A stretch of 12,053 bases of DNA from a virus. Taxonomy: Duplodnaviria; Heunggongvirae; Uroviricota; Caudoviricetes. Shown piece after piece: positions 10,642 through 11,254 of the stretch (positions are counted from its first letter, which is position 1; the number at the start of each line of letters is the position of its first letter). Below the pieces are notes generated by a model. That model was not told the DNA's origin. It saw nothing but the letters and a program-made list of their open reading frames with translations, and made no database searches. The translations under genes and the position numbers were made by a program. The stretch is from the IMG/VR virus record IMGVR_UViG_2850808358_000011; one strand, written 5' to 3'.

Positions 10642-10664
10642 GAGGGCTTCTCAGCCCTCCTTTT
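10642..10664. terminator. Hairpin GAGGGC-ttctca-GCCCTC followed by CTTTT, shared by the convergent capsid and toxin 3' ends
   Basis: 6-bp perfect stem 10642-10647 / 10654-10659; T-run 10661-10664; the minus-strand toxin stop is at 10663-10665. Confidence 0.5.
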
Positions 10665-11006
10665 ACTTAAGCAGATGCTCTCCACCAATCAGGGTAATGA
10701 CTCTTTCAAGCACATCATTAAATATCCCATCTTCTGCCTCTGTGATTAAGCGCGCTTTCCGCTGACGCCAGTCAAGGGTTTGAATGAGTGTGGTTGCTAC
10801 CACGCTGGGGCGTCCAGATTTGTTACCGGAACTTCTGTGGGAGCATTTCGTATGCTCGTACTTATGGGGCAGCATATGACAAGCCCGGTGAGTCGGTTAT
10901 ATTGCTCATGGGATAGTATGAGTGCCGGGCGATACTTTCCGATCTCTTTTCCTTTCTGCGGCTCAAAATCTAGCCAGCAAATATCACCACGCTTAGGTAC
11001 AAACAT
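10663..11006 (-). pseudogene. MazF/PemK-family toxin, split into two ORFs (10797..11006 and 10663..10875) by a 1-nt frameshift at a G4/C4 run
   Basis: N-terminal part GDICWLDFEPQKGKEIGKYRPALILS...CCPISTSIRNAPTEV and C-terminal part SVVATTLIQTLDWRQRKARLI...VITLIGG both match the MazF/PemK pattern; adding one C in the run at 10807-10810 gives a continuous 114-aa ORF. Confidence 0.6.
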
Positions 11007-11254
11007 CAGTAATCAACCTCCTCATTGAATGGGGTGGCAATTTCGTCAGCGTGCGCTGTAACTGGCGTTATCCCGGCGAGTAGTTCGGCTTCACTCAGGC
11101 GACGGCGTGCAGGCTTTTCTACAAAAAGCCCTTTTTCACTAATTTCAACGTTGACGATATCACCCACAGAAAAACCCGGAACGGTTTTAAGGTTTCCCGT
11201 TAGTCGAAGGGCAATGCTATTACCCCATTTTTGCAATACAACCTGTGTGCGCAT
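11006..11254 (-). CDS. MazE/PemI-family antitoxin (AbrB/SpoVT-type)
   Basis: 82 aa; VVLQKWGNSIALRL...LSEAELLAGITP matches MazE (VKRWGNSPAVRIP...TLAELVNDITP); RBS AGGAG upstream of ATG 11254; stop overlaps the toxin ATG (TGATG). Confidence 0.8.
   Translation of the reverse strand: MRTQVVLQKWGNSIALRLTGNLKTVPGFSVGDIVNVEISEKGLFVEKPARRRLSEAELLAGITPVTAHADEIATPFNEEVDY

Follow-up and report, generated by a model that had tools for sequence, protein, structure and literature searches.

In toxin–antitoxin (TA) modules of the MazEF family, a single transcript, which is autoregulated, encodes both MazE and MazF. The modules of Klebsiella pneumoniae (7BYE) and Escherichia coli K-12 (1UB4, 5CK9) pair a PF02452 toxin with a MazE-type antitoxin; the antitoxin gene comes first, its stop codon overlaps the start codon of the toxin gene, and the two products measure 82 aa and 111–114 aa respectively. 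The critical residues of K. pneumoniae MazF include Arg28 and Thr51 (PMC8086154). TA-type cassettes are also carried by the P4-like satellites of E. coli, in which psu and int flank a defence hotspot next to cos; the content of this hotspot varies from element to element and includes gop-beta-cII (Rousset et al., 2022; PMC9122126).

The gene pair analysed here resembles MazEF of K. pneumoniae and of K-12 in all the respects just listed, namely protein families, gene order, overlap and product sizes. It differs from the K-12 module in sequence, the toxin being 37% and the antitoxin 30% identical, and in location, since it is found on a phage satellite and not next to relA. The nearest relative that we found is borne on a plasmid (pTB-nb2, locus L027, 4006–4598; WP_032354044.1 and WP_033810804.1). 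The toxin of this plasmid pair is 93% identical and its antitoxin 76% identical, the genes have equal lengths and an equal overlap, and an upstream TGTAGACA box is shared, whereas identity at the DNA level is 71–80%, and the plasmid copy lies at relaxase/mobA while the satellite copy lies at an att end. With the gop-beta-cII type of hotspot cargo the pair has in common that it is a small TA-type cassette on an E. coli P4-like satellite, near the att/int junction in the circular form of the element. Unlike that cargo, it follows a P2-type capsid gene in an element with no annotated psu, and it is the same in all 56–57 complete genomes with the element. Membership of the psu–int defence hotspot was considered and rejected, on position and on invariance across the lineage.

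Results

A P4-like satellite inserted at hpt

The window, by which we mean the whole 12,053-nt stretch of DNA that was analysed, is contained as an exact substring in CP026877.1 (assembly GCA_002950035.1). The element is a P4-like satellite of ~12.6 kb, inserted between gcd and hpt in E. coli. It carries, in order, genes for a tyrosine integrase, a variable protein of ~350 aa, AlpA and an Icd-like protein, and four small ORFs; next come a primase gene of the P4-alpha type (PHROG 1139), a second integrase-like gene, Ogr/Delta, a 236-aa gene, a homologue of the P2-family major capsid protein and the TA pair, which is the final gene pair of the satellite, at the end opposite int. The integrase at the left end is 403 aa long; the second tyrosine-recombinase-like gene, located at 5879–6880 directly after the primase gene, is shorter (333 aa).

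The homologue of the P2-family major capsid protein (9348–10619) is 423 aa long (PF05125, 242.7 bits) and carries an N-terminal extension of ~130 aa. It is preceded by the 236-aa gene (8638–9348), which is frameshifted in the window. A capsid-protein gene is unusual on a satellite of P2-type phages and may be worth an analysis of its own; we found no directly relevant literature on capsid-encoding P4-like satellites. For the proteins of 346, 236, 99 and 77 aa encoded by the satellite, neither Pfam nor PHROG returned a match.

Positions 1–1128 of the window are the variable segment of the satellite family. The gene in this segment adjoins the integrase gene, and its product measures 346 aa in relatives where it is intact; in most relatives the alignment begins only at about window position 1128, and unrelated proteins of 350 or 352 aa stand in its place. 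The variable int-proximal proteins have no match in Pfam, PHROGs or PADLOC, and the segment looks like the family's slot for cargo or defence candidates.

The right end of the element was placed by comparison with the K-12 empty site, which identifies the first 24 nt of hpt as the attR core (ATGAAACATTATGTAGAAGTAATG; 11517–11540, plus strand). The att core, ATGAAACAT[AC/TA]TGTAGAAGTAATG, lies within 11496–11540 in the window, and within 3008–3049 (attL) and 15918–15959 (attR) in locus L017. The same comparison shows that the native hpt promoter and the first eight hpt codons have been left at attL beside gcd, and that what precedes hpt in the window (11255–11516) is entirely element DNA; the hpt product begins MKHYVEVM in lysogens and MKHTVEVM in K-12. 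Because hpt is preceded only by element DNA in lysogens, its expression must depend on a promoter supplied by the element, for which a candidate is predicted at 11469–11498 on the plus strand. This exchange of promoters at the start of hpt, like the variable int-proximal gene, may merit a study of its own. An earlier sequence-only reading of this DNA had placed the TA pair at the edge of the element, beside the hpt promoter. The first part of this placement is right; the second is not, given that the native promoter lies at attL.

The same satellite, with an identical antitoxin, is also present at a second chromosomal site, beside D-serine (dsdA/dsdX-type) and sucrose-utilisation (csc-type) genes (loci L010, L011, L014 and L016). 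Its presence both at hpt and at the D-serine/sucrose locus indicates no fewer than two integration sites for the family.

Antitoxin and toxin belong to the MazEF family

The antitoxin gene (11006–11254, minus strand) is an intact ORF of 82 aa, and its stop codon is overlapped by 1 nt by the ATG of the toxin gene at 11006 (TGATG), in accordance with the sequence-only reading. When the antitoxin was compared with PDB chains by database-wide phmmer, it matched MazE 7d2n (E = 8.7e-5) and E. coli MazE 1mvf/1ub4 (E = 3.3e-4). In pairwise BLASTP it is 30% identical to K-12 MazE (E = 5e-10), in an alignment that covers its full length, with the C-terminal toxin-binding tail included. The antitoxin scored below the gathering threshold of the Pfam family PF04014 (MazE_antitoxin; 13 bits, where 24.7 are required; E = 0.1), and its homology to MazE therefore rests on the direct phmmer and BLASTP comparisons. 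RefSeq names it 'AbrB/MazE/SpoVT family DNA-binding domain-containing protein'. The exact antitoxin protein is recorded in 7560 collection blocks, and among the matches listed a 114-aa PemK protein comes next after it in 10 of 10 loci.

The toxin gene occupies 10663–11006 on the minus strand. As deposited, it yields a product of 69 aa (10797–11006), from an ORF that starts MFVPKRGDICWLDFEPQKG..., extends over 69 codons and reaches a stop at 10797; the remainder of the gene (...VVATTLIQTLDWRQRKARLITEAEDGIFNDVLERVITLIGGEHLLK) continues in another frame and ends at 10663. The truncated product scores 67 bits with PF02452 (PemK_toxin; cut-off 23.1), and the repaired toxin, in which the two parts are joined, 87.3 bits. 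The toxin also matches PHROG 1936, 'MazF-like growth inhibitor' (4.6e-27), and the solved structures closest to it are K. pneumoniae MazF 7BYE (E = 1.2e-19), followed by MazF 7D28 and E. coli MazF. With K-12 MazF the repaired toxin shares 37% identity. Its R26 aligns with the catalytic arginine (R28 in K. pneumoniae, R29 in E. coli), and S49 stands at the threonine position (Thr51 and Thr52 respectively), a substitution that reads as a conservative change from Thr to Ser. The assignment of the pair to MazE/MazF, proposed from the letters of the window, is thus borne out by the PF02452 scores of the toxin and by the phmmer and BLASTP matches of the antitoxin.

The scores lie below the NCBIfam equivalog cut-offs for MazF (NF007386, 91.3 against 120), ChpB (NF007320, 49.7 against 129) and MazE (20.9 against 113), and also for ChpS, which makes the pair a paralogous member of the MazEF family and not mazEF or chpBS itself. 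In RefSeq the 114-aa toxin appears as 'type II toxin-antitoxin system PemK/MazF family toxin' (e.g. WP_000497967.1), and the TA pair as such is already known, as a routine RefSeq-annotated module of the MazEF family.

The toxin frameshift is found in a single assembly

The break in the toxin gene maps to a G4 homopolymer at 10807–10810 (C4 on the coding strand), an apparent deletion of 1 nt, where every other record has G5. With one G inserted here, the ORF encodes 114 aa and matches the toxin of the sister assembly QWSJ01000012.1 exactly. The sequence-only reading had stated that the toxin reads through only if one base is added to this run, and to that extent it was correct; as a frameshift of the organism the change finds no support, being seen in one deposited record only. 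On the comparisons that follow, we consider it very likely that G4 for G5 arose as a homopolymer error in the consensus of one assembly, CP026877.1, and that the toxin in the organism is most probably an intact protein of 114 aa.

A search with the exact sequence of the 333-aa integrase-like protein of the window led to close relatives. Among them, the draft assembly QWSJ01000012.1 (GCA_003572525.1; locus L021) is of the same lineage as CP026877.1, from either the same isolate or the same clone, and over 15,000 bp the two differ by no substitutions and by four one-base homopolymer indels. Each of these indels breaks a gene in CP026877.1. A T9 run at 492–500 (T8 in the sister assemblies) splits the 346-aa gene, a G3 run at 3510–3512 (G4 in the sister assemblies) splits the 889-aa primase into 120 + 765 aa, and a G2 run at 8818–8819 (G3 in the sister assemblies) disrupts the 236-aa gene that precedes the capsid gene; the fourth is the G4 run of the toxin gene. 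The SRR6049580 reads as assembled by Logan (L022) agree with QWSJ01000012.1 at 100% identity over 8,289 bp, and this assembly differs from CP026877.1 at both of the indel sites that it covers. Between QWSJ01000012.1 and the next relative, L018, there are 21 substitutions and no indels, as against none and four, respectively, on the private branch of CP026877.1 (Fisher p = 7.9e-5).

The sequence-only reading had called for a comparison of homologous loci, and this gave a uniform answer: the run is G5 and the toxin 114 aa long in each of the 21 other distinct records, and G4 was confined to the source record, in the four versions of it that were encountered. A search of GTDB species representatives and JGI metagenomes for exact copies of either allele returned four matches, all of them G5. 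Among the 153 billion gene positions of a large collection, the CP026877.1 contig is alone in having the 69-aa toxin or the truncated primase of 765 aa. A homopolymer sequencing error in a functional pair, which had been put forward as the alternative to decay, accordingly has the sister assembly and the 21 other G5 records on its side. The proposal that the toxin had decayed in a module without addiction function does not survive the finding of four private homopolymer indels and no substitutions relative to the sister assembly.

A lesion elsewhere in the chromosome allows real and apparent mutations in this record to be told apart. The yadG gene (locus L006, 7216–8142), which is chromosomal and outside the window, has a GAA to TAA nonsense mutation (E112*), and this is reproduced in QWSJ01000012.1 with no mismatches. 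Because the independent assembly confirms the yadG lesion and does not confirm the homopolymer indels, yadG serves as an internal control for artefact. The reality of the yadG mutation also means that one true pseudogene or more exists in the lineage, yadG being a conserved gene for an ABC transporter.

That the host lineage has undergone some gene decay, as yadG attests, is one of two points that would speak for real pseudogenisation, in which the satellite would be decaying and cryptic in this strain and its toxin gene would have lost a G, leaving an orphan MazE antitoxin; the other is the number of genes affected, four of the ~17 of the element being disrupted in the record. We nevertheless regard such decay as very improbable. 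All four disruptions are private to one assembly, all are in homopolymers, and the branch that carries them has zero substitutions in 15 kb; the same genes are intact in otherwise identical independent assemblies, and the G4 allele occurs in no second record. Nor is the effect limited to the element, since chromosomal yadE (about L006rc 14860) has the same kind of change, C3 to C2, by which it is probably split in CP026877.1. Decay specific to the element was rejected for these reasons, namely the absence of the indels from sister assemblies without substitutions and the similar change in yadE. Programmed frameshifting or phase variation at the G run was likewise rejected, on the grounds that the run is short and that G5 keeps the gene in frame in every relative.

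The ~5 such frameshifts in ~25 kb extrapolate to roughly a thousand per genome. We take this density to be the signature of an unpolished long-read consensus, and it is from the density that we infer the sequencing platform. Every one of the changes is a 1-nt change in homopolymer length, a class that mutators enrich, and a mismatch-repair-deficient isolate in which the indels are real and homopolymer frameshifts have piled up fast would share this feature. Mutators raise transitions too, however, and usually more than indels, and there are no transitions in the 15 kb; about a thousand frameshifts in one genome also fit an unpolished long-read consensus better than they fit a viable isolate. 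A mutator origin therefore strikes us as scarcely credible, and we retain a consensus error in CP026877.1 as the explanation of the G4 run.

Distribution and conservation of the pair

The pair occurs in 57 of 5,426 complete E. coli genomes, where it is already annotated by RefSeq, and every complete E. coli genome with the satellite's capsid gene has it (56–57 genomes). A homologous pair is carried by 16 large E. coli plasmids (130–240 kb, mostly from chickens), directly downstream of relaxase/mobA. The existence of plasmid and satellite homologues shows that the module has moved between plasmids and satellites.

In the comparison of the satellite toxin with its plasmid homologue, pN is 0.042 and pS is 0.71, a value at which synonymous sites are saturated, so that dN/dS is ~0.02. 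The part of the toxin downstream of the supposed frameshift is likewise conserved with respect to the plasmid homologue. The low dN/dS, together with the conserved catalytic arginine, argues for an active endoribonuclease that would be under strong purifying selection. In PADLOC-DB neither toxin nor antitoxin had a match at E ≤ 0.01.

Regulatory candidates around the pair

Upstream of the antitoxin gene, a consensus scan identified a sigma-70-like candidate promoter for the mazEF-like operon at 11292–11320 on the minus strand (TAGACA, 17 nt, TATCCT). The TGTAGACA box of this candidate recurs upstream of the plasmid-borne homologue. Around it lies an imperfect 22-nt inverted repeat (11268–11333; 77% complementary) that contains a TGTATACA palindrome and may serve as an operator for MazE; a GTATACA motif is present upstream of the plasmid homologue too. 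At the other end of the pair, a GC-rich hairpin at 10642–10659 is a candidate terminator, situated between the convergent capsid gene, which ends at 10619, and the toxin gene, which ends at 10663. Promoter, operator and hairpin are all predictions at the level of consensus.

Discussion

With a toxin read as 114 aa, the locus has the make-up of a complete type II TA operon of the MazEF family, and is most likely a working module. By analogy with MazEF, the AbrB-type N-terminal domain of the antitoxin would bind the operator as dimers, and its C-terminal tail would block the MazF dimer. If the labile MazE were not replenished, free MazF would cut single-stranded RNA, and growth arrest would follow.

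P4-type elements can replicate as plasmids. The main role of the pair is probably maintenance of the element, by post-segregational arrest of cells that have lost its excised or plasmid form, a view that we hold with moderate confidence. It is favoured by the invariance of the pair in the satellite lineage and by the position of the lineage's variable cargo, which is at the other end, beside int. It is favoured also by the occurrence of a 93%-identical toxin on mobilisable plasmids, adjoining a relaxase gene, and by the location of the pair outside the psu–int hotspot, with no PADLOC match.

If the pair is intact and functional, its main role could instead lie in abortive infection of phages or in competition with the helper phage. 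P4-like satellites are known as reservoirs of defence systems, among them the TA-like gop-beta-cII (PMC9122126), and the toxin matches a phage-borne PHROGs family, 'MazF-like growth inhibitor'. Set against this, the pair lies outside the described psu–int hotspot, in an element with no psu annotated, and has no match in PADLOC; it is also invariant across the lineage, in which the part that is swapped is the int-proximal segment (window 1–1128), and its near-identical homologue stands in a typical context of plasmid maintenance and mobilisation. We therefore consider a primarily defensive role unlikely, though it is the second candidate, and prefer element maintenance. Whatever probability maintenance and defence leave would fall to further functions, for instance anti-addiction directed at the plasmid homologue.

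Rather improbable, in our estimation, is a broader reading that would take the locus beyond maintenance. On this reading, the pair would provide abortive-infection or anti-helper defence, or anti-addiction against the 93%-identical plasmid toxin, in a so far undescribed lineage of P4-like satellites that insert at the start of hpt and encode a P2-type capsid protein of their own; in a still less likely variant of it, G4 would be real and MazE an orphan.

The main value of the locus is as a caution about an error-prone assembly. CP026877.1 has about one homopolymer indel per 4–5 kb, and pseudogene calls made from this record are unreliable, be it for the toxin, the primase, the 346-aa and the 236-aa genes, or probably for yadE. 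The biological point is a modest one: a MazEF-family pair is fixed in a capsid-encoding, P4-like satellite that integrates at hpt, and it has a close relative on plasmids.
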